A stretch of 64,000 bases of DNA from Candidatus Yanofskybacteria bacterium (GCA_943359335.1 CALRHC010000002.1:1290-65289); one strand, 5' to 3'; numbered from the stretch's first letter, positions 1 to 63,145 are shown. Numbers and translations: made by a program. Notes: generated by a model not told the origin, from the sequence alone.

Positions 1-111
1 CAAAGGCAGGTGAAGTGGCGGAAGTCGCCGAAAGCGACCAAGTTGGCAGATTTAGCCGCCTACAACATTTTTATAAAATATCTTTGGCGGCCGCACATGA
101 CTCAAAATAAA

Positions 112-348
112 ATGGTGTTTGTCTATGTAATAAAAAGCAAAAATAAAAATTTCAGATATGTTGGCATTACCAACAACATAAGCGAAAGACTAGATAGACA
201 TAATACTGGTAGAAATGTATCGACAAAAAACCATAAACCCTTTGTACTGATCCGCTCGGAACAATATAATGACTATAAGAAAGCAAGAATTAGAGAAAAA
301 TTTTTAAAAAGCGGAGTTGGAAGAAATTTTTTAGATAGTTTACAATAA
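112..348 (+). CDS. GIY-YIG nuclease family small protein (frame is open upstream to window edge; conserved domain starts at Met-112)
   Basis: MVFVYVIKS..FRYVGITNNISERLDRHN matches GIY-YIG motif; ORF track 10..348. Confidence 0.6.
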   Translation: MVFVYVIKSKNKNFRYVGITNNISERLDRHNTGRNVSTKNHKPFVLIRSEQYNDYKKARIREKFLKSGVGRNFLDSLQ

Positions 349-482: not shown

Positions 483-878
483 TTAATTAAACTTTATAGA
501 AAACCCGTACATTCCCATGGCACATGTGCCGTTTATAACAGTGCCAATTTTTTGTGAAGGCACCTCAATTTCGGTAACACCGGATGGTGCTAAGTTTTTT
601 CGGTAATTTAAACTTGGAATAACTAATGCCGAAGAACAATCGAATGTGCCTTGTGTTTTTATTCTAATAACTGTAAGTATATCCGCTTTTGCCAAAATTT
701 CGCGAGGAGTATAGCCACCCTTGGCTTTAATTTCTATAACTTGTTTTCCATCTATAACTTGCGAAACCGCGACAGGTTCTTTATCTGGCAGACCCGAAGA
801 ATCTCTGTTGTTAGCAAAAAGTATTGCAGAAAAAACAACACCGGCAGAAATTATTATAGAAACAATTGTTAATTTCAT
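483..878 (-). CDS. hypothetical secreted/membrane-anchored protein, last gene of copper operon (possible periplasmic metal-binding protein)
   Basis: N-terminal TM/signal segment; Met/Cys-containing C-terminus; adjacent to HMA/CopA genes. Confidence 0.5.
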   Translation of the reverse strand: MKLTIVSIIISAGVVFSAILFANNRDSSGLPDKEPVAVSQVIDGKQVIEIKAKGGYTPREILAKADILTVIRIKTQGTFDCSSALVIPSLNYRKNLAPSGVTEIEVPSQKIGTVINGTCAMGMYGFSIKFN

Positions 879-881
879 TTT

Positions 882-1898
882 TTAAAAATTAAATACTGGA
901 CGCAATAACCCTGCAGCAACTAAGCTATTAATTAAATTTAAAATTCCAAAAAATATAACAATTAATCCAGCTGCTTTAAAGAAAACACCTGAATTACTCT
1001 TGTTAAAACTAAGAGAACTAAAACTTAAAAGTGAAAGCACGGGCAACGTCCCTAAAACAAAAGAAAACATTGTTAAACCACCCGTCCAAAAACTACCTGT
1101 TGTAAGTGTATATATTTGCATTGATTGTGTAAAACCACAAGGCAAAAAGAAAGTAGCTATACCAATTAAAAATGGCGTTAATGTATGGTTAATATTTTTT
1201 AAGCCGTGTATGCGCTTGCCCAAAAAAGCCGGTAGGGTTGGCTGAATTTTTTTAGCCCAAGGAAAAACATCAAGCAAATTTACACCCAAAACAAGAAGAA
1301 TTATTGCCACCAAAAAACTAAGTATAAAAATACCTGTGCCGCCTAATTGGAAAGAAGCACCAGCGATGCCAATAATTCCACCCAACAAAAAGAAAGAAAT
1401 TAAACGCCCAACGTGAAACAATATCTGAGGTTTAACCTTTTCACCTTCTTTGGCAAAATTTGCCGATATAGAAAGCACTAAACCACCCACTACCGCCATA
1501 CAAGTGGAAACAGAGGCTATAAGACCAATAACAAAAGCTGTGCCAAAACCAACATTAGAACTATTAACTAAATTTACTAACCCAATCTTTTGTAGAAAGA
1601 TAAAAAATAAAATAAAACCCAAAGCTACTGGACCGGCAATTAAAAAATCTCGCCACTTAACAGAGCGTTTTTCTTTTTCTAACAAAATTTCGTAACCGTG
1701 CAGTTTAACAACTTCGGTTAAATCTTTGACAATGTGTTCCGCAGTTTTATCGCCAAAATCTCCCGAAACTTCTACACTCAAATCTTTAAGCGAAGCCTGA
1801 GCAGAGTCCACTTCGGATAATTCTTTAAGCTCGGACTCTATTAAAACAACGCAGGCTTTGCAATGCATTCCTTTTACATGGAATTTATATTTTTTCAT
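882..1898 (-). CDS. heavy-metal-associated (HMA) domain fused to CcdA/DsbD_2-like polytopic membrane protein
   Basis: N-terminal GMHCKAC metal-binding motif; multiple TMs with conserved Cys (STCMAV, LPCGFTQ). Confidence 0.65.
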   Translation of the reverse strand: MKKYKFHVKGMHCKACVVLIESELKELSEVDSAQASLKDLSVEVSGDFGDKTAEHIVKDLTEVVKLHGYEILLEKEKRSVKWRDFLIAGPVALGFILFFIFLQKIGLVNLVNSSNVGFGTAFVIGLIASVSTCMAVVGGLVLSISANFAKEGEKVKPQILFHVGRLISFFLLGGIIGIAGASFQLGGTGIFILSFLVAIILLVLGVNLLDVFPWAKKIQPTLPAFLGKRIHGLKNINHTLTPFLIGIATFFLPCGFTQSMQIYTLTTGSFWTGGLTMFSFVLGTLPVLSLLSFSSLSFNKSNSGVFFKAAGLIVIFFGILNLINSLVAAGLLRPVFNF

Positions 1899-1900
1899 AT

Positions 1901-4198
1901 TTATAATTTTTTTGTTTTAATTCTAAGAGAATTAGTTACAACCGAAACACTGGAAGCCGCCATCGCAAAACCGGCAAAAACTGGGTTTAGCAACCAACCT
2001 AAAAATGGGTAAAAAGCACCGGCCGCTAAAGGTATGCCAACAATATTATAAATAAACGCCCAAAAAAGATTCTGCTTTATTCCACGCATTGTTATTTTAG
2101 AAAGTGTTATAGCTTTAACAAGTTTAGAGATATCTCCGTGCAATAAAGTTATACCAGCCGATTCTATAGCTACATCCGTACCTGTGGCCATAGCAATGCC
2201 AATATCGGCCTGTGCCAAAGCCGGAGCATCATTTACACCATCACCCGCCATAACAACAATCTTTCCTTGTTGTTGAAGTTCTTTAATTTTATTTAACTTA
2301 TCTTCTGGTAAAACTTCGGCTACAACTTCGTCTATACCAACTTCTTTAGCAATATAAGCAGCAGTTTGTTTATCGTCGCCAGTTAACATAACCACTTTTA
2401 GGCCTAAGCCGTGCAAACGTTTAACAGCTTCAGCTGATTCTGGTTTTACTGCATCCGCAATCATAACCACACCCAAAACTTTTTCTTTTTCTGCAACTAT
2501 TATAGGAGTTTTTCCTTCGGCAGTATCTTTTTCTATTAAACTAGAATCAAATTGAATATTTAAATCTTTAATAAGTTTAATGTTACCGGCATAATATTCT
2601 GTATTATTTACAATCCCTTTAACACCCTTGCCTTTTATAGCTTCGAAATTATTTATCTGGGTAAAAGAAATATTTTTATCTTTAGCATAATCAATAACCG
2701 AATGAGCTATAGGATGTTCAGAGTTTTTTTCAAGCGAACCTAAAATAGAAATTAATTCCTCATCTTTTTTTTCTGAAAAGTTTTTAATAGAAACAAGTTC
2801 CGGCCTACCTTTAGTTATGGTTCCAGTTTTATCTACCACAACCACATTAGCCTTATGAAGCTTTTCTAGTGTGGCAGCATCTTTAATTAAAATTCCTTCG
2901 CGAGCACCCTTACCTACTCCAACAATAATCGCGGTTGGCGTGGCTAAACCCAGTGCGCATGGACAAGCAATAACTAAAATTCCAACAAAAGAAACCAAGC
3001 CAAAAGAAAGGGCTTGCGAAAATTCCATATAGCGCGAACCAACCAAAAGCCACAAACCCAAAACCACAAAAGATAGTGCCAAAACTATCGGCACAAAAAC
3101 AGCAGAAATTTTATCGGCCAAAGCCTGTATAGGGGCTTTACTGCCCTGAGCATCTTCCACCATTCTAATTATGTGGGCCAACATAGTTTCGGAACCGACT
3201 TTAGTTGCCTTAAAAGTAAAAGCACCACTCGTATTTATTGTGCCTGCTACAACATTTTCTCCAATATCTTTTTTAACAGGGATAGGTTCGCCTGTAATCA
3301 TAGATTCATCTACATAAGAAGAACCTTCGGTTATTATGCCATCCACTGGAATTTTACCGGCGGGTTTAATTAAAATTAAATCTCCATGAATAACCTCGTC
3401 TACAGGAATTTCTTGTTCGCTACCATTACGAATTACCAAAGCGGTTTTTGCTTGCATGTTAATAAGCTTTTCTATGGCATCGCCTGTTTTTATTTTGGAA
3501 CGTGCTTCTAAATATTTCCCCAAAGTTATAAAAGTGATAACCACTATGGTTACATCAAAATAAACATTTTCAACATTTATAAATTTTTCTAAAACATCTT
3601 TAAAAATTGTAACTGCTAAACTATATGTAAAGGCTACCGATGTGCCAATACCAATAAGTGTATCCATATTAGCTTTGCCGTATTTAAGAAAACGATAAAA
3701 ACCCATTAAATATGGTTGGCCGACGTAAAACAAAACATAAGCCGCCATTAAAGGCATTATATTTTGAAAAACATTTCTTAATACAATTGGCATTTCCGAA
3801 ACAATGTCGAACATAGAAAAAATATCCCAAGCCATAAAAACAACGCTAATTATTGCAAGTGGGATAGCGGTTAATAATTTCTTCTTCATATTGGCTAGCT
3901 CCGCCAACTTTTCTTTTTTACTTTGATTTAAACCTAAATGTTCCGCATGCTCGCTTTCCGACATATTCATCTGTTCTGCTGTTAATTGATTTAACAACAA
4001 AGAATAGCCTAATGGTTCTATTTTTTTGGAAAGATTTTCCAAACTTACTTTAGATTCATCGAAAGAAATTTTGGCAGTTTCTGTTCCATAATTAACCTCG
4101 ACTGATTCCACACCATCGATTTTTTTAAATGTTTTTTCTATAATCGCCGCACAAGAAGCGCAGTGCATACCTTTAATTCTAGAGGTTTTTGTTTGCAT
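1901..4198 (-). CDS. copA: copper-translocating P1B-type ATPase
   Basis: N-terminal HMA GMHCASCA, CPC motif ACPCALG, DKTGT phosphorylation site, GDGVNDAP. Confidence 0.95.
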   Translation of the reverse strand: MQTKTSRIKGMHCASCAAIIEKTFKKIDGVESVEVNYGTETAKISFDESKVSLENLSKKIEPLGYSLLLNQLTAEQMNMSESEHAEHLGLNQSKKEKLAELANMKKKLLTAIPLAIISVVFMAWDIFSMFDIVSEMPIVLRNVFQNIMPLMAAYVLFYVGQPYLMGFYRFLKYGKANMDTLIGIGTSVAFTYSLAVTIFKDVLEKFINVENVYFDVTIVVITFITLGKYLEARSKIKTGDAIEKLINMQAKTALVIRNGSEQEIPVDEVIHGDLILIKPAGKIPVDGIITEGSSYVDESMITGEPIPVKKDIGENVVAGTINTSGAFTFKATKVGSETMLAHIIRMVEDAQGSKAPIQALADKISAVFVPIVLALSFVVLGLWLLVGSRYMEFSQALSFGLVSFVGILVIACPCALGLATPTAIIVGVGKGAREGILIKDAATLEKLHKANVVVVDKTGTITKGRPELVSIKNFSEKKDEELISILGSLEKNSEHPIAHSVIDYAKDKNISFTQINNFEAIKGKGVKGIVNNTEYYAGNIKLIKDLNIQFDSSLIEKDTAEGKTPIIVAEKEKVLGVVMIADAVKPESAEAVKRLHGLGLKVVMLTGDDKQTAAYIAKEVGIDEVVAEVLPEDKLNKIKELQQQGKIVVMAGDGVNDAPALAQADIGIAMATGTDVAIESAGITLLHGDISKLVKAITLSKITMRGIKQNLFWAFIYNIVGIPLAAGAFYPFLGWLLNPVFAGFAMAASSVSVVTNSLRIKTKKL

Positions 4199-4202
4199 TT
4201 TA

Positions 4203-4266
4203 TTTTCTTTTTAGCTTATAAACTTTTAATATTTCTTTTTAGCTTATAAACTTTTAATATTTCTTT
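4203..4266. repeat. 28-bp tandem direct repeat (ttagcttataaacttttaatatttcttt x2 plus partial) spanning csoR stop codon and copA RBS region
   Basis: identical 28-mers starting at 4211 and 4239. Confidence 0.7.
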
Positions 4267-4491
4267 TTTGGCTTTATCATTCTCACCAGAAGAAACCTGT
4301 TTTAAAACACAGCTATCCAAATGATTTTCTAACAAAAGATCCTCGGCATTGGAAAGCCCTTGCTTAACAGCAGAAGTTTGAGTAATTACATCTATACAGT
4401 AAACTCCTTTTTTAACCATTTCTTGTAAGCCCCTAACTTGCCCCTCTATTATTTTTAAGCGATGAATTATTTTATTTTTTGTGGGATTCAT
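4216..4491 (-). CDS. csoR: CsoR/RcnR family metal-sensing transcriptional repressor
   Basis: 91 aa, DUF156-like Cys..His..Cys pattern (CIDV...H...C), upstream of copA. Confidence 0.8.
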   Translation of the reverse strand: MNPTKNKIIHRLKIIEGQVRGLQEMVKKGVYCIDVITQTSAVKQGLSNAEDLLLENHLDSCVLKQVSSGENDKAKKEILKVYKLKRNIKSL

Positions 4492-17913: not shown

Positions 17914-19284
17914 CTACTTGATTTCTAAGGTCAAACTTTGACTAGAGAAAATTTTAGAAATAGATAACCCCTCTGGCTTAGTGGTGGATTCTATTGTGGC
18001 TGTTATAGGCAACTTTAACCCACCGGAAGCATTATCTTTTACTTTAATTTTTAAAGTTATTTCTTTTTCTTCTTGCGGTTCTATACCAAACAAATCTGTA
18101 TTATTATTTTGATTTAAAATTATTGTTTTAGAAGCAGAGTCTAAACCAGTACTTGGTTGCGCTGAAGTTAAATCAAAGTTATCACTATCTAATTTAATTT
18201 TTAAAGTTAAGTTCGATAGTGGAATATCTAAATTATTTTGATAAACAATTTTATACGTAATAGTTTCTCCAGCACGTGTCGATGTTACGCCGTCCGGGCT
18301 AGTGTTAATAGATAAAGCTAAAGGCGCCACAATAAGTTTTACTGTTCCACTAGCTTCTTTATATGTTTTCCAACTTGTACCTTCCGAACCTTCCACAAAA
18401 GCCCTAAATACTTTTCCTTCGCCTTCTATACCAGTAACTAACCCCTTAATAACCAATGTTTTTTCTTCTTGAGGTAAAATAGAATCTAACTTCCAGACAT
18501 TATTAAATTCCGAAAGTTTCTCGGAAGTTTCTGTTACCCTAAAACCCGCTGGAGATTCTAAACGCAACCTAATATTATTAAAAGCAACCTCACCTTCGTT
18601 TTTTAATTTAAACCTTACCTCTACATTTTCGCCAGAAATAGTTTCGTTGGACGATTCCACATTTAAACTTATTGGGAATGAAGCAATTTTGGTAGCCGCA
18701 GTAGCAACGGATTGAAAAACTATTGTACCGGCCGAAGGCTTAAAGTTAAAAATTGCTTGAGCCTTTCTTTCAAAGTTATCGCCACCGTAAACAACTGCCT
18801 TAAATTCCCTTTCGTATAAACCACTTGGGTTAAGCACTGGAATATTAATCGTTTGTTTTAAAACACTTTGTTTAAACTGATCAGCTTCGGAAGTAGAAAT
18901 TACTGGTTGGGAAAAATCTGGAAACTGAAAGGTTAAAACACCATCCTTAAGTTCTGTTTCATTTTTATTAACCAGTCTTAATTTCCAAGTAACAGTTTCA
19001 CCCGCATCTACCTCGCTTGGAGCACTTAACTTAATTTCTACACGGTCTTTTCTAAAAGCGTAAAAACCCCGAAAGAAAACGTAAACTGCTACAGTTACTG
19101 CCAGCAAAAAGAAAATACCGGCACCAAAAAATATTTTTTTCCAGATAGCTGGCGAAGGCGCTACATCTTCTGTTAATGGCGGCGGGGCAACAACTTCTTC
19201 TTTTACAGCTTCAACTTCGACCGGAGGTAAAACTGGTTTTTGTTCGGTATAAAGCTTTTTTTGTAGTTCTTCTAAATTATCCAT
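17914..19284 (-). CDS. hypothetical membrane-anchored extracellular beta-rich protein
   Basis: Pro-rich N-terminus, single TM, repeated beta-strand domains. Confidence 0.5.
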   Translation of the reverse strand: MDNLEELQKKLYTEQKPVLPPVEVEAVKEEVVAPPPLTEDVAPSPAIWKKIFFGAGIFFLLAVTVAVYVFFRGFYAFRKDRVEIKLSAPSEVDAGETVTWKLRLVNKNETELKDGVLTFQFPDFSQPVISTSEADQFKQSVLKQTINIPVLNPSGLYEREFKAVVYGGDNFERKAQAIFNFKPSAGTIVFQSVATAATKIASFPISLNVESSNETISGENVEVRFKLKNEGEVAFNNIRLRLESPAGFRVTETSEKLSEFNNVWKLDSILPQEEKTLVIKGLVTGIEGEGKVFRAFVEGSEGTSWKTYKEASGTVKLIVAPLALSINTSPDGVTSTRAGETITYKIVYQNNLDIPLSNLTLKIKLDSDNFDLTSAQPSTGLDSASKTIILNQNNNTDLFGIEPQEEKEITLKIKVKDNASGGLKLPITATIESTTKPEGLSISKIFSSQSLTLEIK

Positions 19285-28541: not shown

Positions 28542-29015
28542 TTATTCGAAGACGAGGAAACCCTTGAGTTTCTCGATGGTACTCTTGCTCTCAAGAACTT
28601 CTCCCCCAATCTCCAAAGAAAACGTTACGGGCTCATTGGGGAATGTCCCGCCAAATACTGCAGTAGGACTTTCGAAGAAGATCTTCAGCTTTTTTGTGAT
28701 CTTGGTTACAAGGTGCTGCAAGCTTACATCTACAGCTTCCCAGATACCACAACCAACCACAGCAAGAGCTGAAAAATCAGGGCCTCCGCTGGGAATATCC
28801 CTTAAAGGGAAGGTTACCAAGAAATCAACTTCGCATTCTCTGAGGTTTCCACTTTTCGTTTCTCTATGCAACAAAATACCTAACACTAAATAGTTATTTT
28901 TGACATTCCACTTAACCTGAACAAGAACTTCTGTACCTTTCGGCAAAGTAATATGCTTGTAACACTTTACTTTGTTTCTGGGCAAGTCCAAGTATTCATG
29001 ACTTTTTATAAGCAT
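28542..29015 (-). CDS. hypothetical protein in GC-rich island
   Basis: AAGGAG SD 9 nt upstream of ATG; composition distinct from flanks; overlapping + ORFs are probably GC artefacts. Confidence 0.5.
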   Translation of the reverse strand: MLIKSHEYLDLPRNKVKCYKHITLPKGTEVLVQVKWNVKNNYLVLGILLHRETKSGNLRECEVDFLVTFPLRDIPSGGPDFSALAVVGCGIWEAVDVSLQHLVTKITKKLKIFFESPTAVFGGTFPNEPVTFSLEIGGEVLESKSTIEKLKGFLVFE

Positions 29016-29605: not shown

Positions 29606-29964
29606 GGGGATGACTTGAATCGTCAAGGAACGTATCGATAAGAATTCGAAGCTGAGGTATACCACAAACTCATAAAACTGGTTACAAATAGTAAGTGCAA
29701 ACTTATTTAACGCTAAACCAGCGTTTGCCGTAGCTTAAAATCTATCGGCCATCGCCCTGTTTTTGCCCAAGAAGACAGTGTGCGGTGTTAACCTTTTGGG
29801 CTGCTGTCTAATGAAGGCGAACTTTAGACTTAAGACAATCGCCGAAAGTTTAACTTTTTTCACCATTCTTTAAGGGTTAAACTTAAACCAAGAATGGTTA
29901 GGCTTCGTAGCAGTTCAATCGAGAAATTTTTTGCACGCGGGTTCAATTCCCGCCATCTCCACCA
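29606..29964 (+). ncRNA. ssrA: tmRNA (transfer-messenger RNA)
   Basis: 5' GGGGATG pairs with CATCTCC-A-CCA 3'; T-arm GGTTCAATTCC; tag ORF GCA AAC TTA TTT AAC GCT AAA CCA GCG TTT GCC GTA GCT TAA (ANLFNAKPAFAVA) at 29697-29738. Confidence 0.9.
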
Positions 29965-40781: not shown

Positions 40782-40985
40782 TCACCGAGCTCTGGGGGAG
40801 AGCATTAAGGACTCTCCCTGAACTAGGGCGAAGGGACTATCGTCCCTTACTTCGGTTGTTCCGAGAATCACCATTGCGGCCTGGATGTCCAACTCGCGAA
40901 AGAAACCAGGTTGGGTCAGATCCACTACTTCCTTTTCCATACAACGACTCCCCGCGTGTATGAGAAAATTAGGAATCCATTCCAT
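40782..40985 (-). CDS. 67-aa ORF in GC-rich, hairpin-dense segment; alternatively a structured ncRNA bounded by two terminators
   Basis: no SD; starts right after a terminator; multiple GC stems (GGGAGAG/CTCTCCC, GGGAC/GTCCC). Confidence 0.3.
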   Translation of the reverse strand: MEWIPNFLIHAGSRCMEKEVVDLTQPGFFRELDIQAAMVILGTTEVRDDSPFALVQGESLMLSPRAR

Positions 40986-40993
40986 AAAATTTA

Positions 40994-41012
40994 TAAGAGC
41001 GTCATGCTCTTA
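40994..41012 (-). terminator. hairpin TAAGAGC-GTCAT-GCTCTTA after 41023..41346 gene
   Basis: minus-strand TAAATTTTATGG tail. Confidence 0.5.
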
Positions 41013-41022
41013 TGATTTTAAT

Positions 41023-41346
41023 CTAGAACAGCTGGTAGTATCCTACTACGAATACCACCACCAACGAGACGATGGACCCGATCCCGATTCCCCTAAAGAT
41101 GGGACCAGGTTTTTCTGGGTACTCGGCACTTCCGCCGTCGTATCCCATAAAAAGGCCCATCTTTGTGAACAGCGGAGACAGATACGGCCGCCCCGACTCT
41201 TCTCGCACATAAAACGCGATAACCAGGATAGAAACCAGCATTATCGTGCCGCCAACTAGAAGCGGCGTAATTAGGGGTATTATGGAACCAGCAGCCGCAG
41301 CTGTTAGCAGTACAATCCAGAACTTCGAGCTTTTTAATGTATCCAT
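41023..41346 (-). CDS. hypothetical membrane protein (GC-rich island)
   Basis: 107 aa, 2 TM at both ends. Confidence 0.5.
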   Translation of the reverse strand: MDTLKSSKFWIVLLTAAAAGSIIPLITPLLVGGTIMLVSILVIAFYVREESGRPYLSPLFTKMGLFMGYDGGSAEYPEKPGPIFRGIGIGSIVSLVVVFVVGYYQLF

Positions 41347-41380
41347 TTTCTCCCTCCCTAAGAGGTTAAGTTGAGATTAG

Positions 41381-41632
41381 TTATCTACCGGTTTCGTAAA
41401 ATGAAACCATCCTCTGAACCGGGTCTATGTGACTCCTATCATCTATCTCTTGCACGATAGACTCCGCAAACTCCTTGGCTTCCTCAAGAGAAATGCCTAT
41501 GTATTCGGCTTCCTTTTCAATCTTACGCTTGAAGCCAGATGCAAGTCGGATTCCCTTTCGGCGTAATTGCTGTTTCAGAAACAAAAATGCGATCTGACCC
41601 TTGCGAACATCGTCCACAATGAACCTCCTCAT
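41381..41632 (-). CDS. hypothetical 83-aa protein (GC-rich island)
   Basis: downstream of consensus promoter. Confidence 0.5.
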   Translation of the reverse strand: MRRFIVDDVRKGQIAFLFLKQQLRRKGIRLASGFKRKIEKEAEYIGISLEEAKEFAESIVQEIDDRSHIDPVQRMVSFYETGR

Positions 41633-41738: not shown

Positions 41739-42089
41739 CTATATTCTTTGACTATTTATAAGTCCCAAAAGCATTTTTGAAACCTCTGTATAATCTTTAT
41801 AAAAACTACTAAAAACTTCCTCATTTATATGACCATCGTCTTTTATTAGTTCAAGAAGTGATACGCATTCATAAACAGAACCACGAGCTATGGTATAAAA
41901 ATTTCTTTTATCTGCTTTAGAAAATTTACCACTACCTTCGGCAATATTTATTACCGAGCTAATTGAAGCCCTTCTTAATTGATCTCTAATATAAGAATCA
42001 ATCAACTTGTTGTTTCTCAATAAGTTAAGGATATTCTTATTCAATAATTTTGACTTGGAGTAAACGGAAAGTTTTTCAAAATCAAACAT
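41739..42089 (-). CDS. four-helix-bundle protein (23S rRNA intervening-sequence protein / Avd-like family)
   Basis: MFDFEKL...QLRRASISSVINIAEGSGKFSKADKRNFYTIARGSVYE matches TIGR02436-type pattern. Confidence 0.8.
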   Translation of the reverse strand: MFDFEKLSVYSKSKLLNKNILNLLRNNKLIDSYIRDQLRRASISSVINIAEGSGKFSKADKRNFYTIARGSVYECVSLLELIKDDGHINEEVFSSFYKDYTEVSKMLLGLINSQRI

Positions 42090-44165: not shown

Positions 44166-44753
44166 TTATTTAAACAACCTAAAAGAGTTATAAATTTTAT
44201 TTAAAATATCATTATCATCTTCACTATAGAAAATAAGGATTTTACCATCGCCGAGCCAAACATACATTTCATAAACATTACCTATCATTCCTTCGAAATT
44301 TCTGCGATGCAAAATAACCATGGCCTCGCCTAGTTTTTTTACCACAAAGGTGGAATAAAATTTTTCACCAATTACATTGTTTCCACCAAGATTAAAATAT
44401 AAACTCCTTAAGTTATTTTCATATTCGGCTAAGGATTTAAATTTAACATCTTGATAATATGCCTTGATTCCAGAAGCTTCATAATATCCATCCTTTTTAA
44501 AAAAACCAACAATCGCCACACCATCAGGATTTTCTTCTGCGCTATAATATTCCGGATATTTTATCTCAAACCCATACTTTTCATTTCTATAAGTTTTCCA
44601 ATTCGCGGTTTCGTCTGCGACTTTTTGATTTGCATTTGAATTTTCCGCTGGAGCATAAGCTGGTTTTTTAGAGAGATAAAAATACCCGCCACCGAGTAGT
44701 AAAATTCCTAGTGCGATGATAACAACATCTTTTATAAATCCTTTTTGGTTCAT
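44166..44753 (-). CDS. secreted/anchored protein, paralog A (shares N-terminal approx 70 aa with 45310..45819)
   Basis: MNQKGFIKDVVIIALGILLLGGGYFY... approx 80% nt identity over first 200 nt with paralog B. Confidence 0.55.
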   Translation of the reverse strand: MNQKGFIKDVVIIALGILLLGGGYFYLSKKPAYAPAENSNANQKVADETANWKTYRNEKYGFEIKYPEYYSAEENPDGVAIVGFFKKDGYYEASGIKAYYQDVKFKSLAEYENNLRSLYFNLGGNNVIGEKFYSTFVVKKLGEAMVILHRRNFEGMIGNVYEMYVWLGDGKILIFYSEDDNDILNKIYNSFRLFK

Positions 44754-44754
44754 G

Positions 44755-44976
44755 TTATTTTAATAACTTCTCAAATTCAGACGGGGATAATTCGGCGTCT
44801 CGTAAAATTTTTCTTAACAGACCATGACCAATAATTTTATGATCTGGTATGGTTACTGATTTTCTACCTGGGCAAAACAATCGCATATGACTACCGCGCT
44901 GACGAACTTGCCTGTAACCAATTCTGCTAAGAGTTTTTGTTAATTCCTTACCTGAAAATAAAGGCAGGCGAGTCAT
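44755..44976 (-). CDS. hicA: HicA family toxin (mRNA interferase)
   Basis: YcfA/HicA signature ...RQRGSHMRL...VTIPDHK. Confidence 0.8.
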   Translation of the reverse strand: MTRLPLFSGKELTKTLSRIGYRQVRQRGSHMRLFCPGRKSVTIPDHKIIGHGLLRKILRDAELSPSEFEKLLK

Positions 44977-44981
44977 ATATA

Positions 44982-45233
44982 CTAGAAAGACATTGTATAT
45001 AAACTTAATTCTTTAGAACGATAGGCTTTAAGCAAATCTTTATTTCCTTTGTCTTCTATAATTAGCTCAATAACTTCGCGTATGTTTTTTAAAGCCTCGT
45101 TTTTTGTTTTACCTTGACTGTAACATCCTTCAAAAACAGGACATTCCACCACATAAAAACCGTCCTCGTCTTTTTCTACAAGCAAGGGCAGTTTAGAGCC
45201 TAATCGTTTGGTTTTAGTACTAACCTTTGACAT
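44982..45233 (-). CDS. hicB: HicB-like antitoxin (UPF0150)
   Basis: DGFYVVECPVFEGCYSQGKTKNEALKNIREVIELII. Confidence 0.75.
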   Translation of the reverse strand: MSKVSTKTKRLGSKLPLLVEKDEDGFYVVECPVFEGCYSQGKTKNEALKNIREVIELIIEDKGNKDLLKAYRSKELSLYTMSF

Positions 45234-45309
45234 ATTGATTTTACCTTAGCTTATTTTGAGACCTTTGCCAATTATTCTTTAATCACCGCTAAAGCCAAAA
45301 TTATTTATT

Positions 45310-45819
45310 TTATTTTGTGAATTTGAAGGTTGATAAAACCTTGTTACAAAAATCCAAAATATCTAATCCACCATAATCTACACAATTGGCATAAACTTTC
45401 CGATTATCTTTATAAAAATAAATTGGATTCTCGCCGTCTATATTATTATTTTTAGTAAATAAAACAGTTTTCACTGATACGATTTGATATCTACTATCCG
45501 CCACATTACTTATCGTTAATCTTGCTGGCTCGTAACCTCCCGCCAATAAATCATAACTCACATCTACCTGAAAATCGGCGGCATTTTGAAAAAAAGACTG
45601 ATCAATAACGTCTGAACTTTTTGGGTATCTGAATTCAATTTCATATTTTTCATTTCTATAAGTCTTCCAATCTTTAGTTTCATCGGCAATTTGATTTTGA
45701 TTCGTATTTTCCGCTGGAGCATAGGCTGGGTTTTTGGAAAAATAAAAATACCCACCGCCTAGCAGTAGAATCGCTAGTACAATAATGACAATGTCTTTAA
45801 TAAAACCTTTTTGGTTCAT
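45310..45819 (-). CDS. secreted/anchored protein, paralog B
   Basis: MNQKGFIKDIVIIVLAILLLGGGYFY... Confidence 0.55.
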   Translation of the reverse strand: MNQKGFIKDIVIIVLAILLLGGGYFYFSKNPAYAPAENTNQNQIADETKDWKTYRNEKYEIEFRYPKSSDVIDQSFFQNAADFQVDVSYDLLAGGYEPARLTISNVADSRYQIVSVKTVLFTKNNNIDGENPIYFYKDNRKVYANCVDYGGLDILDFCNKVLSTFKFTK

Positions 45820-56260: not shown

Positions 56261-56896
56261 TTATGGGTTTCTGACTTTGTGAATTCCGCGCTGAAGTAAC
56301 ATGTTCACATCAATCGTCATGTTCAGTGTATTCGAACCACGATATTCCCGCGGATTTCTGTCGGGTAGGTAAACCACGTCGTTTACCACTTCTCTGACGT
56401 GTTCACCAGCATTTGTACCCAAGTACGGGATATAGGTATAAACGTCACTGGCGGGCTCTGTAGCCACCCTGCCAGTACATATCTGCGGAGGGCCAACCAT
56501 ACAATCAGTCATATCTTTAGATATCACCAAAAGAGTGTACTCCTGCCCCGGATAAAACCCACCCATTAGCTTGGTTATGTATTGGGGATAAGGATCCCTA
56601 GGGCTGTCGGCCGGCCCCAAACCGAAAGATCCGATTGGAACCACACAGAGAGCCGGATAACCCTTATCATCGTACACAATAAGATCGTCTCTATAGTAGT
56701 GCCCGTTAAAAACCAAGACATCCCGCCATACAGACGACCTATTAACAAATAGCAGATTACCCTGACGCAAGCGCTCTCTACCAAGATCCTTTACTGGCAT
56801 CACCTGCGGGTTTTGAACCACGGGCAGTTGATATGTATGGATCGCACAGCTATTTAGCACGATTATTGCTAAAAAAACTAGACTTTTAAGGAACAT
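56261..56896 (-). CDS. hypothetical lipoprotein in GC-rich single-gene island
   Basis: signal peptide plus lipobox LNSC; composition unlike flanks. Confidence 0.6.
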   Translation of the reverse strand: MFLKSLVFLAIIVLNSCAIHTYQLPVVQNPQVMPVKDLGRERLRQGNLLFVNRSSVWRDVLVFNGHYYRDDLIVYDDKGYPALCVVPIGSFGLGPADSPRDPYPQYITKLMGGFYPGQEYTLLVISKDMTDCMVGPPQICTGRVATEPASDVYTYIPYLGTNAGEHVREVVNDVVYLPDRNPREYRGSNTLNMTIDVNMLLQRGIHKVRNP

Positions 56897-57025
56897 AACG
56901 CACCTCCATCGTATATGTTTTAGCGTTTTTTAACTTTTTATATACTACATAAAAGTAATATCTTTGTCAAATAGATAGTTTACTTGATAAAATGTTTGTA
57001 TATGCCCAGTAACACTACTTCAAAC

Positions 57026-57286
57026 ATGTTCTTCTACACGTATGTGTTGCTGAGTTTAAAAGACGGTAGGTTCTATATGGGTTATACTAATGATTTAAAG
57101 CGTAGAGTAGAAGAACATAATTCTGGCAAAAGTTTTGCTACCGAACCCAGAAGACCATTTAAACTGGTTTACTACGAAGCATGTCTGAACAAGAATGATG
57201 CCGAGAACAGAGAAGATTATTTAAAAAGTACTATTGGTCGAAGATTTTTATCAAAAAGATTAAGAAACTTTAAAAGGGAAATATAA
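57026..57286 (+). CDS. GIY-YIG nuclease family small protein
   Basis: MFFYTYVLLSLKDGRFYMGYTNDLKRRVEEHN. Confidence 0.65.
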   Translation: MFFYTYVLLSLKDGRFYMGYTNDLKRRVEEHNSGKSFATEPRRPFKLVYYEACLNKNDAENREDYLKSTIGRRFLSKRLRNFKREI

Positions 57287-57319: not shown

Positions 57320-58966
57320 ATGGATGAACTAACTCAACAACGCGATGATAAATTAACCGATATTCATCGTGGGCAAGAAGAATCTGCTTGCGAATTAAAA
57401 GCCCAAAAACTTGGTTTAAATTATATCAACCTCGCGCATGTTCCAGTTGAACGCGATAGTTTACACTTTATTCCCAAAGAAGAGGCCGAGAGAATAAGGG
57501 CTATCGTTATTCTTAAAAAAGGCCAAACTCTTAAACTGGGTGCAGTTGAACCAGCAAACGAAGAAACTAAACAGGTTGCAGAAAGATTAAAATCTCAAGG
57601 TTTTAATATAGAAATTTTTATGATTTCTATATCATCTTTCAAAAAAGCCTTAGATGAATTTAAGTTTCTACCCTCACAAATTAAAGGTGCCTCTACTTCT
57701 GGCGAAATATCTTTAGAAAAAATAGAAATATTAAAAAAAGAATTAGCAACCTTTGCCAATCTTAAAACTAAATTATCGCAAGTGAACCAAACCGATACTA
57801 GCGCTCTTTTAGAAATATTTTTAAGCGCAGCTTTAACGCTAGAAGTTTCCGATATTCATGTGGAGCCTCAAGAAAATCAAACACAGATACGTTTTAGGTT
57901 AGATGGTGTTTTACAAGATGCCGGAACAGTTATAAAGACTGTTTACGAATCGGTTCTTTCCAGAATCAAATTGCTTTCCGGTTTAAGGTTAAATGTTAAA
58001 GATGTTCCGCAAGATGGTCGTTTTACCATTAAAGAAGATGGTGCGGAAGTTGAAGTTAGGGTTTCTATACTCCCTGGTGCTTATGGCGAATATATAGTTT
58101 TAAGAATTTTAAACCCTAACGCAATTAAATTAAATATTAAAGATTTAGGTTTTAGAGATTATCTTTGGCAAAAATTAGAACCAGAAATTAAAAAACCTAG
58201 TGGCATAATTTTAGTAACAGGCCCAACAGGATCTGGTAAAACAACAACACTTTACGCTTTTTTAAAACACTTAAACCAACCAGGAATTAAAATTATTACA
58301 TTAGAAGATCCTATTGAATACCATCTGCAAGGTATAGATCAATCACAAGTTGAACCAGAAAAAGGCTACACTTTTGCCCAAGGACTGCGCTCTATTTTGC
58401 GCCAAGACCCAAATATTATATTGGTTGGAGAAATTCGCGACGAAGAAACTGCCGATGTTGCGCTTCACGCCGCCTTAACCGGACATTTAGTTTTTTCTAC
58501 ACTTCATACCAACGATGCCATTGGTGCCATCCCCCGCTTTCTAGATTTAAATGCTAAGTCTCAAATTTTAGCTTCTGCATTAAATGCAGCTATCGGGCAA
58601 AGATTGGTTAGAAAATTATGTTCTAGCTGCAAAGCTCCAGCCGATGGAGATGACGTAGAAAAAATTAAAAAGAATTTATCGGATATTCCTGAAAACATAA
58701 TTCCTAAAGAAATCACTGTTTACAAAAAAGTTGGTTGTGAAAAATGTGGCGGCACAGGGTACAAGGGTAGAATCGGTATTTACGAAGTAGTTTTTGTTAG
58801 CGACTCTTTAGAAAAATTAATAGCAACAAACCCTTCCCATCAAGATATTTTAACGGAAGCCAAAAAAAATGGTTTTATAACAATGTTCCAAGATGGTTTA
58901 CTTAGAGTACTCGAAGGAGAAACAACACTAGAAGAAATATCTAGAGTTACGTCTTCTAATGTATAA
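57320..58966 (+). CDS. pilB: type II/IV secretion system ATPase (PilB/GspE family)
   Basis: GSPII_E N-domain, Walker A GPTGSGKTTT, tetracysteine CxxC...CxxC. Confidence 0.9.
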   Translation: MDELTQQRDDKLTDIHRGQEESACELKAQKLGLNYINLAHVPVERDSLHFIPKEEAERIRAIVILKKGQTLKLGAVEPANEETKQVAERLKSQGFNIEIFMISISSFKKALDEFKFLPSQIKGASTSGEISLEKIEILKKELATFANLKTKLSQVNQTDTSALLEIFLSAALTLEVSDIHVEPQENQTQIRFRLDGVLQDAGTVIKTVYESVLSRIKLLSGLRLNVKDVPQDGRFTIKEDGAEVEVRVSILPGAYGEYIVLRILNPNAIKLNIKDLGFRDYLWQKLEPEIKKPSGIILVTGPTGSGKTTTLYAFLKHLNQPGIKIITLEDPIEYHLQGIDQSQVEPEKGYTFAQGLRSILRQDPNIILVGEIRDEETADVALHAALTGHLVFSTLHTNDAIGAIPRFLDLNAKSQILASALNAAIGQRLVRKLCSSCKAPADGDDVEKIKKNLSDIPENIIPKEITVYKKVGCEKCGGTGYKGRIGIYEVVFVSDSLEKLIATNPSHQDILTEAKKNGFITMFQDGLLRVLEGETTLEEISRVTSSNV

Positions 58967-60336: not shown

Positions 60337-60359
60337 CCCGCCACGTTGGACGTGGCGGG
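60337..60359. terminator. GC hairpin CCCGCCACG-TTGGA-CGTGGCGGG between convergent ruvB and adhesin gene
   Basis: T-run on minus strand side (AAAAAAA on +). Confidence 0.6.
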
Positions 60360-60366
60360 GGTAGAG

Positions 60367-62997
60367 TTAAGGAACTGTTTCGCCGAAATGATCAGCGAAA
60401 ATGAAAAAGTCATTGTTGTTGATAAAGTTGTCTCCGTCGAGGTCAAACCTCGCCAACTCCTGCGGAGTATGTTCAACCTTGTCGGTCTGCTCCACAAACA
60501 GAAAGAAGTCTGCGAAATCGATCCTCTTGTCGCCGGTGAAATCCGGCGACGGCGGCAACCTAACGATTTGGATATATTCCTCTTTGGTTTTCGGCGAAAC
60601 TTTCTCACCGTTAACCAAAGTTACCACCAAACTCGGGGAATACTTCCCCCGAGTCCGGTATACATGGGTCGGATTATTCACAATACTCGAATCTCCATCA
60701 CCAAAATACATGACGTGAGAAGAGTATCGCAACCCCTCCAACTTGTAAGTGAACTGAACTTCCAAACTATCAACTCCCTGCCGAGCATTGACAGAGAAAT
60801 CGACAACGGAAGCTGGTCCCCATGGAGGATCAGTTGCTGTTGAAGACAACTTCACCCTGATCGGACTCCCCAGACCAACGAAGTACAGATAGACGTACGT
60901 CTGCTTGTCTCCGATGGTTCTTGTAGGAGTGAACTCGACCCAAATATCCTTGGTTGAGTTCGGTGAAATGGTGAAGTTGGGTTCCGTAAGAACACGGAAA
61001 TCCAACGAATCCAATCCGCCCACCCTATATCGAAAAACCTCGGTTCCAACATCTCCAGTATTGGAAATACTGAACTTGGCAGTGCTACTACCCTTGCCAA
61101 GCTCAACAGGAGGAAGACCAACAATTTCCTGCGAAGCTACGATATTGGCATCGCGTGTAGCGATCCAAATTGTATCCGACATTGGTTGATGATCTGCACC
61201 TCCTGGTCCTTCAAATTCCGCCTCTACCACATACGCGCCAACTTCAGTGAACACATATGTGAGAGTGTCTCTGTAACCAGATTGTCTGAAACTCTTGAAC
61301 TCTCTTGAGTTCGTGAGACTAGAAAGACGGGTTATCTGCCAATCCGAAAGAGTGACAGATCCTCCAAGATTCTCGTTCCTGAAAAAGATTGAGTATGGAG
61401 GAGAACCTGCGAGAGAGGACGGAATAATGTTAATAGTCGGCCTCGCTTGCGGAGGAGGGTCTTTCCCTACTCCACTTAAAAACACAGAACTGCTTCCACC
61501 TTGACCGTTATGATTAATGTTCAGGGTGGCCGTACGAGAACCTACAACCTGCGGCGAGAAAATCACCGACGCGTTGTAGGTTTCTCCTGGAGCGATAGTG
61601 ATGGCAGACGGACCACTTAATGTAAAAGCGGTACTGCTCCCACCGATGTACATACTAGTGATAAATAAATTACTACCACCAGTATTTTGAAGCGGGATAG
61701 TAAAACTAGAACCACTGCTTCGCACGATAGTGCTATCGGCCGAGTAGTTAGTACTCGAAACCGTAAGCACGGGCACGGGAGTAGTTGTTCCAGTTCCAGT
61801 TCCAGTAAACACAGCAGACGCCGTACTACCAGAACCGTAACTTGCAACCAGCGTTGCGGATTTACTTCCCGCAGACGCCGGTGTAAAGCTGACAGTTACC
61901 AACAGACTATCGTTCGCTGGAACTGAAGCGCTCACAGGACTTACCCCGAACTCGCTATTTGTGGTAGCAAGCCCAATCGCAATCACACCAGAAGTAGGAT
62001 TGCGTAGGTAAACCGTTCTGCTGGCACTCCCACCGGTATTGGTAGAACCAATATCGACAGAAGTTACTGAGAAAGCTACAGGACCAGTGACCACAGAGCC
62101 ACCACTCGAACTTCCTCCTCCACCAGTTGCAACGCCATTTCCAGTCATCGCAATCACCGCAGGACTATTAACCCCATTGTGATTCATCGTGATATTTCCA
62201 GAAGCACTTCCGGCCGACGTCGGCGTAAAGCCAACAGTGACCGTAGTGCTATCACCCACATTCACGTTTACGCTCGGAGGAATCGCCGGTGAAACAGTGA
62301 ACAGTGGATTACTGGAAACAACACCGCTGATCGACATTACTGCCGTACCAGTATTCTTGATCTTGAGAGTGAGCTGGGAGGTTAATCCCGTGTTCACATC
62401 TCCAAAACCAAGACTATTTGGTACTGGAGTGGCTTGAGCTAGTGGAGTTGTATAACCCGAAAGGGCCATAGCAAATCCAATACCAGCAGAAGGACTGACC
62501 CATCCTCCATTTCTGAAGAAGGACATCCCTCCGTGTTCAACACCACCAAAGCTCGTAGTTCCAGCGCCACGCCGAACCTTGTAATAGTTGGCGTTGCTAC
62601 CGGAACCAGAACGAGTCAGTACGATAGATATATTCGGTGAAGTAGTAATCGCGGGAGACGAAAGCGTATAGGTTCTCTCTGAAAAAGAATTATCCAGAGA
62701 CGCCCCAGATGCTGAAGCGCTCGAAAGAAGAACGCCTCCTTGTCTTACCTCGATCACCACATTGTCGTTAGGGCTTCCGCCTTTAGACAATGCCGTAGTG
62801 ACACTGGTAATTACGTATCCCGGAGGAACGGTCACGTTTTCCATAACCTGTTCGTCGGTTCCTACTTCGCCACCGAACCCAGAACTGCAGCACATGTCCG
62901 TATTTACACCACCCAACACAACCACCGTTTGAGCCGACGAAATCGTCGCCCAAACCAACATCAAAATGGCCAAAATACGGCCGATTGCATTGTTCAT
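60367..62997 (-). CDS. large secreted protein with tandem Ig-like (ASH/choice-of-anchor-D-like) repeats, PKD-like domain and C-terminal dockerin-like Ca-binding module; GC-rich island
   Basis: signal peptide; repeats ...FTPTSAGSASGNITMNHNG / FTPASAGSKSATL / FSPQVVGSRTATLNINHNG; C-terminal DFTGDKRIDFADFF...DLDGDNFINNNDFFIF; GAGGAGG SD. Confidence 0.8.
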   Translation of the reverse strand: MNNAIGRILAILMLVWATISSAQTVVVLGGVNTDMCCSSGFGGEVGTDEQVMENVTVPPGYVITSVTTALSKGGSPNDNVVIEVRQGGVLLSSASASGASLDNSFSERTYTLSSPAITTSPNISIVLTRSGSGSNANYYKVRRGAGTTSFGGVEHGGMSFFRNGGWVSPSAGIGFAMALSGYTTPLAQATPVPNSLGFGDVNTGLTSQLTLKIKNTGTAVMSISGVVSSNPLFTVSPAIPPSVNVNVGDSTTVTVGFTPTSAGSASGNITMNHNGVNSPAVIAMTGNGVATGGGGSSSGGSVVTGPVAFSVTSVDIGSTNTGGSASRTVYLRNPTSGVIAIGLATTNSEFGVSPVSASVPANDSLLVTVSFTPASAGSKSATLVASYGSGSTASAVFTGTGTGTTTPVPVLTVSSTNYSADSTIVRSSGSSFTIPLQNTGGSNLFITSMYIGGSSTAFTLSGPSAITIAPGETYNASVIFSPQVVGSRTATLNINHNGQGGSSSVFLSGVGKDPPPQARPTINIIPSSLAGSPPYSIFFRNENLGGSVTLSDWQITRLSSLTNSREFKSFRQSGYRDTLTYVFTEVGAYVVEAEFEGPGGADHQPMSDTIWIATRDANIVASQEIVGLPPVELGKGSSTAKFSISNTGDVGTEVFRYRVGGLDSLDFRVLTEPNFTISPNSTKDIWVEFTPTRTIGDKQTYVYLYFVGLGSPIRVKLSSTATDPPWGPASVVDFSVNARQGVDSLEVQFTYKLEGLRYSSHVMYFGDGDSSIVNNPTHVYRTRGKYSPSLVVTLVNGEKVSPKTKEEYIQIVRLPPSPDFTGDKRIDFADFFLFVEQTDKVEHTPQELARFDLDGDNFINNNDFFIFADHFGETVP

Positions 62998-63145
62998 AAC
63001 TACCTCCTCTTATCCACATGGGATAGGTATAGGGGTTGGTTAATAAAATTAATGACACCTTTTGACTTTTTTGTAAAGGTACTATTAAACAAACTATACC
63101 ACTCTGAAAGTTGTTTGTAAAGGGCTGAGCAATTACCAAAAAAGT

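Follow-up and report, generated by a model that had tools for sequence, protein, structure and literature searches.

Repeats of the choice-of-anchor D type are found together with C-terminal anchoring signals that differ from lineage to lineage. Here we describe a gene for a protein with such repeats, found in a stretch of 64,000 nucleotides of DNA from Candidatus Yanofskybacteria bacterium (GCA_943359335.1, CALRHC010000002.1:1290-65289), which as a whole is called the window below. The gene lies on the minus strand and encodes 876 amino acids (aa), and the four immunoglobulin (Ig)-like repeats of its product score far above the cutoffs of the models for choice-of-anchor D proteins (NF012200; PF15780, PF22544). 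The protein differs from the known ones in that it ends in a dockerin-like module and has no sorting signal, and in that it starts with a jelly-roll domain for which there is no Pfam model.

The tail of the protein resembles the dockerin of Cel48 from Bacteroides (Pseudobacteroides) cellulosolvens (2Y3N chain B). Both consist of two 12-residue EF-hand-type loops with helices, the loops starting 33 residues apart. The helices of the target are, however, unusually aromatic (DFFLF and DFFIF), and its loop 1 carries Thr at position 3. It also differs from cellulosomal dockerins in general, as neither a cohesin nor a scaffoldin, an enzyme module or a second dockerin is found nearby.

Dockerins are described from ultra-small bacteria as well. 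SEML1_0315 from Southlakia epibionticum (Saccharibacteria) is an essential envelope protein with a dockerin, for which adhesion to host glycans or their degradation was proposed (Wang et al. 2023, PMC10633639). Compared by description only, it shares with our target that it is an envelope-associated protein of Patescibacteria with a dockerin domain, but it originates from another class of that group. The dockerin-type giant proteins of Omnitrophota are suggested to attach to the surface of a host or prey (bioRxiv 10.1101/2023.11.21.568195). These proteins also combine dockerin/EF-hand modules with beta-sandwiches, like those of family 35 of the carbohydrate-binding modules (CBM35), in ultra-small and possibly host-attached bacteria. 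They exceed 30,000 aa, are membrane-anchored and contain many dockerin repeats, whereas the target, at 876 aa, has only one such module, at its end. Finally, the tripod proteins in the baseplate of Staphylococcus phage 812 contain CBM16/CBM61-like domains which are proposed to bind cell-wall glycans (PDB 9EUF/9EUI; PMC13433997). A chain of this baseplate is the best fold match of our N-terminal domain; the match covers chain residues 794-941, and the similarity is low, with 14% identity and a template modelling score (TM-score) of 0.51.

Judged from its sequence, the target is therefore of a known kind, that is a modular choice-of-anchor-D surface protein with a dockerin-type terminal module, which carries an un-modelled CBM-like domain at its N-terminus. 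We regard it, with a probability of about 0.6, as a resident, clade-specific and non-covalently anchored surface protein of groundwater Patescibacteria (Parcubacteria/Minisyncoccia-type), which would act as an adhesin or as a component of a surface layer.

Conservation of the locus

The target gene is found in a fixed chromosomal surrounding. The order of the genes is a TyrRS-type aminoacyl-tRNA synthetase (reverse), PBP1A, the target, ruvB (reverse), a pilB-like T2SSE ATPase (reverse), a lipoprotein of 211 aa, tsaE and polA. The same slot (PBP1A > gene > ruvB < pilB-like) is occupied in the genome of the window and in all eight relatives examined, and it is kept even in relatives in which the identity of the flanking genes is as low as 71-79%. 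According to their labels the relatives belong to Patescibacteria, Parcubacteria or Minisyncoccia; most of them stem from groundwater, including the Hainich wells. The genes dnaA and dnaN are located 6-8 kb upstream of the target. In all four lineages with contigs reaching that far, which is past the right end of the window, the target was seen about 6.5 kb from dnaA-dnaN and rnpA-yidC, and this proximity indicates that it lies close to the likely replication origin.

No integrase, insertion sequence (IS) element, mobility gene or tRNA is present at the borders of the target. Matches outside the clade are restricted to generic Ig repeats, the closest ones with approximately 33% identity over approximately 35% coverage, and no donor with a full-length homolog outside the clade could be identified in the homolog search. 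One ortholog, which is 57% identical, is named 'choice-of-anchor D domain-containing protein' by NCBI.

In a preliminary description of the locus attention was drawn to the nearby ATPase of a type IV pilus. Episymbiosis in Saccharibacteria is reported to be driven by such pili (PMC12206443). The adjacency as such is correct, as the gene for the PilB-like ATPase (57320..58966) ends 1.4 kb from the target with ruvB in between. However, it is encoded on the opposite strand within a housekeeping block of conserved synteny, forms no operon with the target, and nothing in the present data links it to the target protein.

Small genes of the GIY-YIG type were observed at 56984..57286 (plus strand), beside the pilB-like gene, and at the left end of the window, where the gene call is cut off and overlaps the open reading frame (ORF) 10..348. 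The copy beside the pilB-like gene varies among the relatives: it is located between ruvB and pilB in the relative L010, while the gene calls of L001, L003 and L009 lack it. This variable presence and placement suggests a mobile element of the homing-endonuclease type.

Gene structure and export

The target is the only long ORF of its region. The same exact protein is recorded in the metagenome-assembled genome (MAG) GCA_943356865.1, and the DNA of the gene is identical in three independently assembled contigs, which derive from different runs. The features of the gene and of the predicted protein are as follows.

60337..60359, minus strand: intrinsic terminator hairpin (10-bp stem and T-run)
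60367..62997, minus strand: ORF of 876 aa (ORF call; exact protein in a MAG)
60370..60561, minus strand: dockerin-like module, residues 813-876 (family profile, two EF-hand-type loops)
60562..60831, minus strand: PKD domain, residues 723-812 (PKD_4 match at 760-801)
60832..61137, minus strand: Ig repeat 4, divergent ASH/HYDIN-type, residues 621-722 (HYDIN and TMEM131L matches)
61138..61452, minus strand: degenerate PKD-like segment, residues 516-620 (aligned ortholog segment is PKD)
61453..61791, minus strand: Ig repeat 3, ASH-type, residues 403-515 (profile and repeat alignment)
61792..62085, minus strand: Ig repeat 2, ASH-type, residues 305-402 (profile and repeat alignment)
62086..62127, minus strand: Gly/Ser-rich linker, residues 291-304 (sequence)
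62128..62427, minus strand: Ig repeat 1, ASH / choice-of-anchor D, residues 191-290 (best-conserved repeat, 60-71% identity across orthologs)
62428..62931, minus strand: N-terminal beta-jelly-roll, CBM-like, residues 23-190, 168 aa (AlphaFold2 model and Foldseek)
62932..62997, minus strand: Sec-type signal peptide, residues 1-22 (inspection; conserved in all orthologs)
63003..63009, minus strand: Shine-Dalgarno sequence GAGGAGG (direct reading)
63121..63093, minus strand: promoter-like TTTACA-17-TATAGT with an upstream TG (consensus match, about 96 nt before the ATG)

The Shine-Dalgarno sequence is separated by a 5-nt spacer from the ATG at 62997. At the other end, 8 bases past the stop codon, the terminator (60359..60337) consists of a 10-bp stem with 8 G-C pairs followed by TTTTTTT, and is placed between the target and the convergent ruvB gene. 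Position 60337, from which the preliminary description had counted the gene, is the end of this terminator. The target is monocistronic, and both its Shine-Dalgarno sequence and its terminator are strong. The scan of the region for promoters gave one site, while 3.5 were expected from shuffled sequences, so that its position is the sole argument for the promoter-like site.

By inspection, the signal peptide is composed of MNNAIGR, ILAILMLVWATI and SSA, with the predicted cleavage between SSA and the following QT. This is the tripartite n-h-c layout with small residues at -3 and -1 that characterizes substrates of signal peptidase I. The signal peptide is present in all orthologs and is the sole hydrophobic segment of the protein, which is predicted to be exported through Sec. 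The secreted ORF with its strong Shine-Dalgarno sequence and signal peptide had already been recognized in the preliminary description, and the reading of the sequence agrees with it. The mature protein would comprise approximately 854 aa with a mass of 88.7 kDa, a pI of 5.1 and two Cys residues. Its sequence was also inspected for an LPXTG motif, a lipobox and a C-terminal transmembrane helix, and none of these anchors was found. The dockerin-like tail is therefore the obvious candidate for holding the protein at the cell surface.

Domain architecture

The sequence predicts the following architecture: signal peptide, CBM-like beta-jelly-roll, Ig1, Gly/Ser linker, Ig2, Ig3, degenerate PKD, Ig4, PKD and dockerin-like module. 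Two of these parts, the N-terminal domain (23-190) and the degenerate PKD-like segment (516-620), are absent from the preliminary description.

The four Ig repeats share the motif F(T/S)P..(A/V)G(S/D) and are 28-41% identical to each other in an alignment of the segments. At least three repeats had been reported before; their type and motif were given correctly, while their number is four. The NCBIfam model choice_anch_D (NF012200) matches in four stretches with 112.3 bits (cutoff 45), Pfam ASH (PF15780) with 88.1 bits (cutoff 27) and Pfam HYDIN_VesB Ig (PF22544) with 94.6 bits (cutoff 25.5). The E-values of the ASH, HYDIN_VesB Ig and Cep192_D4 matches range from 1e-25 to 1e-27. Ig repeat 4 is matched by the HYDIN chain 9ijj_4G over residues 624-739 and by TMEM131L Ig5 at 646-692.

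The PKD-like segment near the C-terminus that had been described before is confirmed just at the threshold, as PKD_4 (PF18911) matches residues 760-801 marginally with 27.3 bits and a cutoff of 27. ColH PKD chains match the PKD region as well (E 0.008). For residues 516-620 of the window's own protein no Pfam match was obtained. We call this segment a degenerate PKD because the aligned segment in the orthologs P0005 and P0006 is a clear PKD (PKD_4/PKD, PF18911/PF00801, E 5e-8).

No Pfam or CBM family matches the N-terminal domain. Among 1.84e9 representative proteins it has 55 relatives at E<=0.001, in which it often occurs in tandem repeats and some of which show weak sub-threshold matches to DUF4082. 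Among the homologs of the target the domain is confined to the six orthologs of the clade, as far as the 120 matches listed of 131 are concerned, and the combination of this domain with Ig1 occurs in only 6 of approximately 185,000 species representatives. The AlphaFold2 model is a beta-sandwich with a score of 94.3 in the predicted local distance difference test (pLDDT). In a Foldseek search with this model the chain of the phage 812 baseplate mentioned above was nearest (E 2.8e-5), followed by the capsid protein of PBCV-1. CBM36/6/35 modules and lectins were found at E-values of about 1e-3 and TM-scores of 0.33-0.54, the CBMs at 1.6e-3 to 8e-3 and 0.33-0.51. The profile of the domain family gave one significant PDB match, again to this protein of phage 812 (9euf_0, E 3.5e-4). 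The domain is likely the distal, ligand-binding tip of the target.

The C-terminal tail contains the loops D819-F-T-G-D-K-R-I-D-F-A-D830 and D852-L-D-G-D-N-F-I-N-N-N-D863, followed by FFLF and FFIF, respectively. Sequence inspection thus reveals the duplicated pattern of a 12-residue loop plus helix known from dockerins, with D, N or T at the loop positions 1, 3, 5, 9 and 12, and each loop is followed by an aromatic DFFxF helix. Eleven residues of the tail are invariant in six orthologs. A profile of seven homologous tails, the seventh being a short protein which alone turned up when homologs of the 71-aa tail were sought by a word index, matches the dockerin 2Y3N_B end to end over 58 residues (E 1.3e-10). 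Calmodulin-type EF-hands give only partial matches to this profile at about 2e-5. All seven tails match Dockerin_1, the best with E 1.7e-7, and two further orthologs, which are not part of the profile, match the dockerin profile at E 6.5e-23. The two EF-hand-like repeats of the preliminary description are hereby supported as a dockerin-like pair.

Other dockerins and candidate partners

In six-frame translations of the window and of all fetched loci no other dockerin-like ORF was detected, which argues against a cellulosome-like system. The domain matches of the target protein do not include a catalytic module.

Two proteins of the window were considered as partners of the tail. The first is a DUF11 membrane protein (17914..19284, minus strand) of 456 aa with an N-terminal tail, one transmembrane helix (approximately residues 49-71) and beta-sandwich repeats of the DUF11/NPCBM_assoc/DUF7507 type. 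As a carrier of a cohesin it is not supported, since it has no sequence relative in the PDB and its Pfam match to cohesin stays below the threshold. The other is the 211-aa lipoprotein, which has no Pfam match and for which the AlphaFold2 model is poor (pLDDT 56.9). Foldseek with this poor model revealed no cohesin, only weak FN3-like matches (E > 0.01).

The lipoprotein (56261..56896, minus strand) is remarkable for other properties, too. It is predicted from an invariant lipobox Cys17, has homologs in close relatives only, and is located four genes from the target, with which it is co-conserved. The GC content at its third codon positions (GC3) is 0.48, compared to 0.28, and an excess was seen in all five genomes measured, reaching a GC3 of 0.74 in L009. 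It evolves faster than the flanking genes, with approximately 78-80% identity in the closer relatives and 50% in L009. A mild discordance with the tree was also observed, as the proteins of L010 and L001 are 89% identical and those of the window and L010 78%.

Nucleotide composition and codon usage

The composition of the target was compared to the 44 other ORFs of the window. In accordance with the preliminary description the gene is GC-rich and the composition is not uniform. Its GC content is 0.486 compared to a mean of 0.36 (z = 4.4). The excess is found at second (GC2 0.517 compared to 0.344, z = 4.7) and third codon positions (GC3 0.451 compared to 0.28, z = 3.1), while GC1 is no different from that of the other ORFs. 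By composition the target is thus atypical, as a foreign gene is expected to be.

From the amino-acid composition of the target and the codon preferences of the genome a GC content of 0.428 is expected, with 0.486 being observed and a coding mean of 0.36. About half of the GC excess is therefore due to the amino-acid composition. The protein is rich in G, S, T, P and V, with G, S, T and V making up 45% of its residues, and contains little K, E and I. A broad shift among synonymous codons, which remains after the amino-acid correction, accounts for the other half. The share of ATC among the Ile codons is 0.46 in the target and 0.07 in the genome, that of TTC among the Phe codons 0.55 and 0.12, and that of AAG among the Lys codons 0.68 and 0.20. 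The shift also favours G-ending codons for Lys, Glu and Gln. High expression is not supported as a cause of this bias, as L20, S20, L35 and IF3 of the window, which are few reference genes, have an ordinary GC3 of 0.28-0.36.

The GC excess of the target is present in all six relatives measured, including genomes with 45-49% GC. The part of the excess which is caused by codon usage is seen throughout the AT-rich genomes of the clade; in the three others of these the GC3 of the target is 0.46-0.48 and that of the flanks 0.23-0.36. In L009, whose genome has 48% GC, the target reaches a GC3 of 0.64 with flanks of about 0.54. L011 shows the excess for GC2 but not for GC3. The excess in L009 makes it probable that an intrinsic force contributes as well, be it selection or GC-biased gene conversion.

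Divergence of the alleles

Between the target and its orthologs the identity is no more than 32-57%, in contrast to 71-97% for the flanking housekeeping genes. The flanks make L010 the sister of the window (93-94%). The target allele of L010, however, has its nearest match in the distant L009 (54%) and shares only 32.5% with the allele of the window, which groups with those of L001 and L003 (56%). This conflict between the gene tree and the tree of the flanks suggests that alleles were replaced by recombination within the clade. A scan of metagenomes added one new partial allele.

The divergence is unevenly distributed over the protein. Among the orthologs the signal peptide is conserved, Ig1 is 60-71% identical and the tail 40-53%. 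The region from Ig2 to Ig4 exists in three types, represented by P0001, P0002 and P0003, by P0005 and P0006, and by P0004, with 24-34% identity between the types. P0004 carries extra modules, and the domain content varies among the orthologs. The N-terminal domain of the window is an outlier: its identity to the domains of the other five orthologs is 35-37%, while these are 56-76% identical among themselves. This indicates that in this genome the tip domain has either diverged in a lineage-specific way or been replaced.

Neither a diversity-generating retroelement nor phase variation explains this variability. The gene calls of the window contain no reverse transcriptase family, a template repeat of the gene is not found elsewhere in the window, and the only tandem repeat within the gene is a trivial one of 6 bp x 3.3. 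As the DNA is in addition identical in three assemblies, the divergence has arisen between lineages and is not programmed within a population.

Origin of the gene

The preliminary description assumed a horizontal acquisition, possibly from a donor of higher GC content or from a host, which would make the gene recently transferred and foreign to the genome. The GC content of 0.486 compared to 0.36, the GC3 of 0.45 compared to 0.28 and the broadly atypical codons agree with that, and the ribosomal and translation genes of the window do not share the codon bias. However, the same gene occupies the same slot in nine lineages with flanks diverged to 71-79%, and the GC excess recurs in every relative measured and is to one half a matter of amino-acid composition. 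The borders are free of integrases, IS elements and tRNAs, and the matches outside the clade cover the Ig repeats only. Because of the synteny in nine lineages, the recurrent compositional excess and the lack of mobility signatures and of a donor, a recent import is not supported and seems highly improbable to us. A better, though still doubtful, explanation is that the locus is ancestral and its alleles were repeatedly replaced by those of GC-richer relatives (45-50% GC) within the clade. Members of the clade with 45-52% GC do exist, the gene tree conflicts with the tree of the flanks, and the 211-aa lipoprotein is likewise GC-rich and mildly discordant. Furthermore, the GC3 of the target in four AT-rich genomes (0.45-0.48) lies between that of their own flanks (0.20-0.36) and that of the flanks in GC-rich relatives (0.42-0.61). 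Donors of this kind would account for some of the GC3 excess of the AT-rich genomes. On the other hand no pair of alleles exceeds 64% identity, which means that no recent transfer was caught, and in L009 the GC3 of the target (0.64) and of the lipoprotein (0.74) is still above that of the flanks (about 0.54). According to these comparisons the target appears to be a long-resident, fast-diverging gene of its lineage and not a recent foreign import.

Possible role of the protein

If the target is a non-covalently anchored surface protein, its dockerin-like tail would fold around two Ca2+ ions and dock to a partner on the cell surface, thereby providing the 'anchor' of this choice-of-anchor-D protein. 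The array of Ig and PKD domains would form a stalk of approximately 25-30 nm, and the distal jelly-roll would bind a ligand, most plausibly a glycan on the surface of a host or another cell. The rapid mosaic divergence may reflect a diversifying pressure on an exposed protein, whose alleles seem to be exchanged by homologous recombination in the conserved end regions, from the signal peptide to Ig1 and in the dockerin. In this respect it was reasonable to suggest, as done before, a surface protein or adhesin of an organism with a small genome, apart from the acquisition from a donor or host to which the suggestion was tied.

Several observations weigh against this reading. The window's own tail reaches 15.6 bits with Dockerin_1 (PF00404) in the full protein and 21.8 bits when isolated, with a cutoff of 22.9. 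The preliminary description had concluded that a dockerin implies a cohesin-bearing partner; however, in the precomputed Pfam calls, which cover most genes of the 64-kb window, no cohesin (PF00963) is found above the threshold, and the sole cohesin-like signal is the sub-threshold match of 15.3 bits (cutoff 24.1) in the DUF11 membrane protein. For many non-cellulosomal dockerins no cohesin is known. The assignment of the N-terminal domain as CBM-like depends on low TM-scores (0.35-0.54), and the discordance between gene and flanks on six full-length alleles. Finally, the protein varies most in its stalk rather than in the putative binding tip, which fits an evasion of immunity or of phages or a relaxed constraint at least as well as a tuning of host specificity.

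A serious alternative to an adhesin, even if we consider it unlikely, is a major protein similar to those of S-layers. It would be abundant, assemble itself into a Ca2+-dependent array and use the dockerin-like module for its attachment to the lattice or envelope. The composition is typical for surface arrays, with S, G, T, V and A accounting for 52% of the residues, two Cys and a pI of 5.1, and the gene is monocistronic with a strong Shine-Dalgarno sequence and a terminator. It is also a single-copy core gene of the clade with a fast, cassette-like replacement of alleles, for which the slpA cassette of Clostridioides difficile is known. However, the Pfam matches include no SLH or other S-layer family, a high expression is not demonstrated because the ribosomal genes do not have the same codon bias, and with its tip carried on a stalk the protein resembles an adhesin more closely. 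That the protein is part of a cellulosome-like multi-enzyme complex is hardly conceivable. The best match of the tail is indeed a cellulosomal dockerin and the N-terminal domain has a CBM-like fold, but a catalytic module, a second dockerin ORF in the window and the fetched loci, and a cohesin or scaffoldin were not found.

With respect to the preferred surface protein a more far-reaching idea may be put forward, to which we give little credence. The locus could encode the variable and exchangeable 'head' of a surface-display system specific for Patescibacteria, with its tail held by a non-canonical partner, for which the 211-aa lipoprotein or the DUF11 protein would be candidates. Whole alleles would recombine between species of episymbionts via the conserved ends and thereby set or shift the host range or evade phages or host defences, and the GC3 excess would be the footprint of GC-biased gene conversion at a hot spot beside oriC.

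Other features of the window

Some further observations were made in the window. A GC-rich patch (about 0.45-0.48) at 40885..41632 contains only short, doubtful ORFs and adjoins a gene of the 23S_rRNA_IVP family (41739..42089). It may be an unrecognised RNA or the remnant of a mobile element. At the gathering thresholds the Rfam matches of the whole window are limited to a tRNA and to the tmRNA, with none in this patch. At 44166..45819 (minus strand) two paralogous small membrane proteins of 195 and 169 aa flank a HicA/HicB toxin-antitoxin pair; their N-termini are near-identical and they show PsbP_2-like matches of approximately 27 bits. A 157-aa ORF without Pfam match (28542..29015, minus strand; GC3 0.446) is located just upstream of an smpB-like ORF and the tmRNA (29606..29964, plus strand), and is the only other ORF of the window with at least 150 aa and a GC content above 0.40. 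A compact copper-handling cluster at 483..4491 (minus strand) encodes a metal-sensing Trns_repr_metal repressor, an HMA P-type ATPase, an HMA-DsbD_2 protein and a cupredoxin.

Implications

From the compositional analysis it can be learned that a large GC anomaly in a secreted gene rich in G, S and T does not by itself show a recent horizontal transfer. How the ultra-small, host-dependent Patescibacteria recognize their hosts and attach to them is little understood beyond a few cultivated Saccharibacteria. The locus described here is a concrete candidate from the less-studied groundwater Parcubacteria/Minisyncoccia, as it is single-copy, fixed in its position and fast-diverging, with a tip and an anchor that can be tested. 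The pattern of allele replacement could mark an interaction with a host or with phages.

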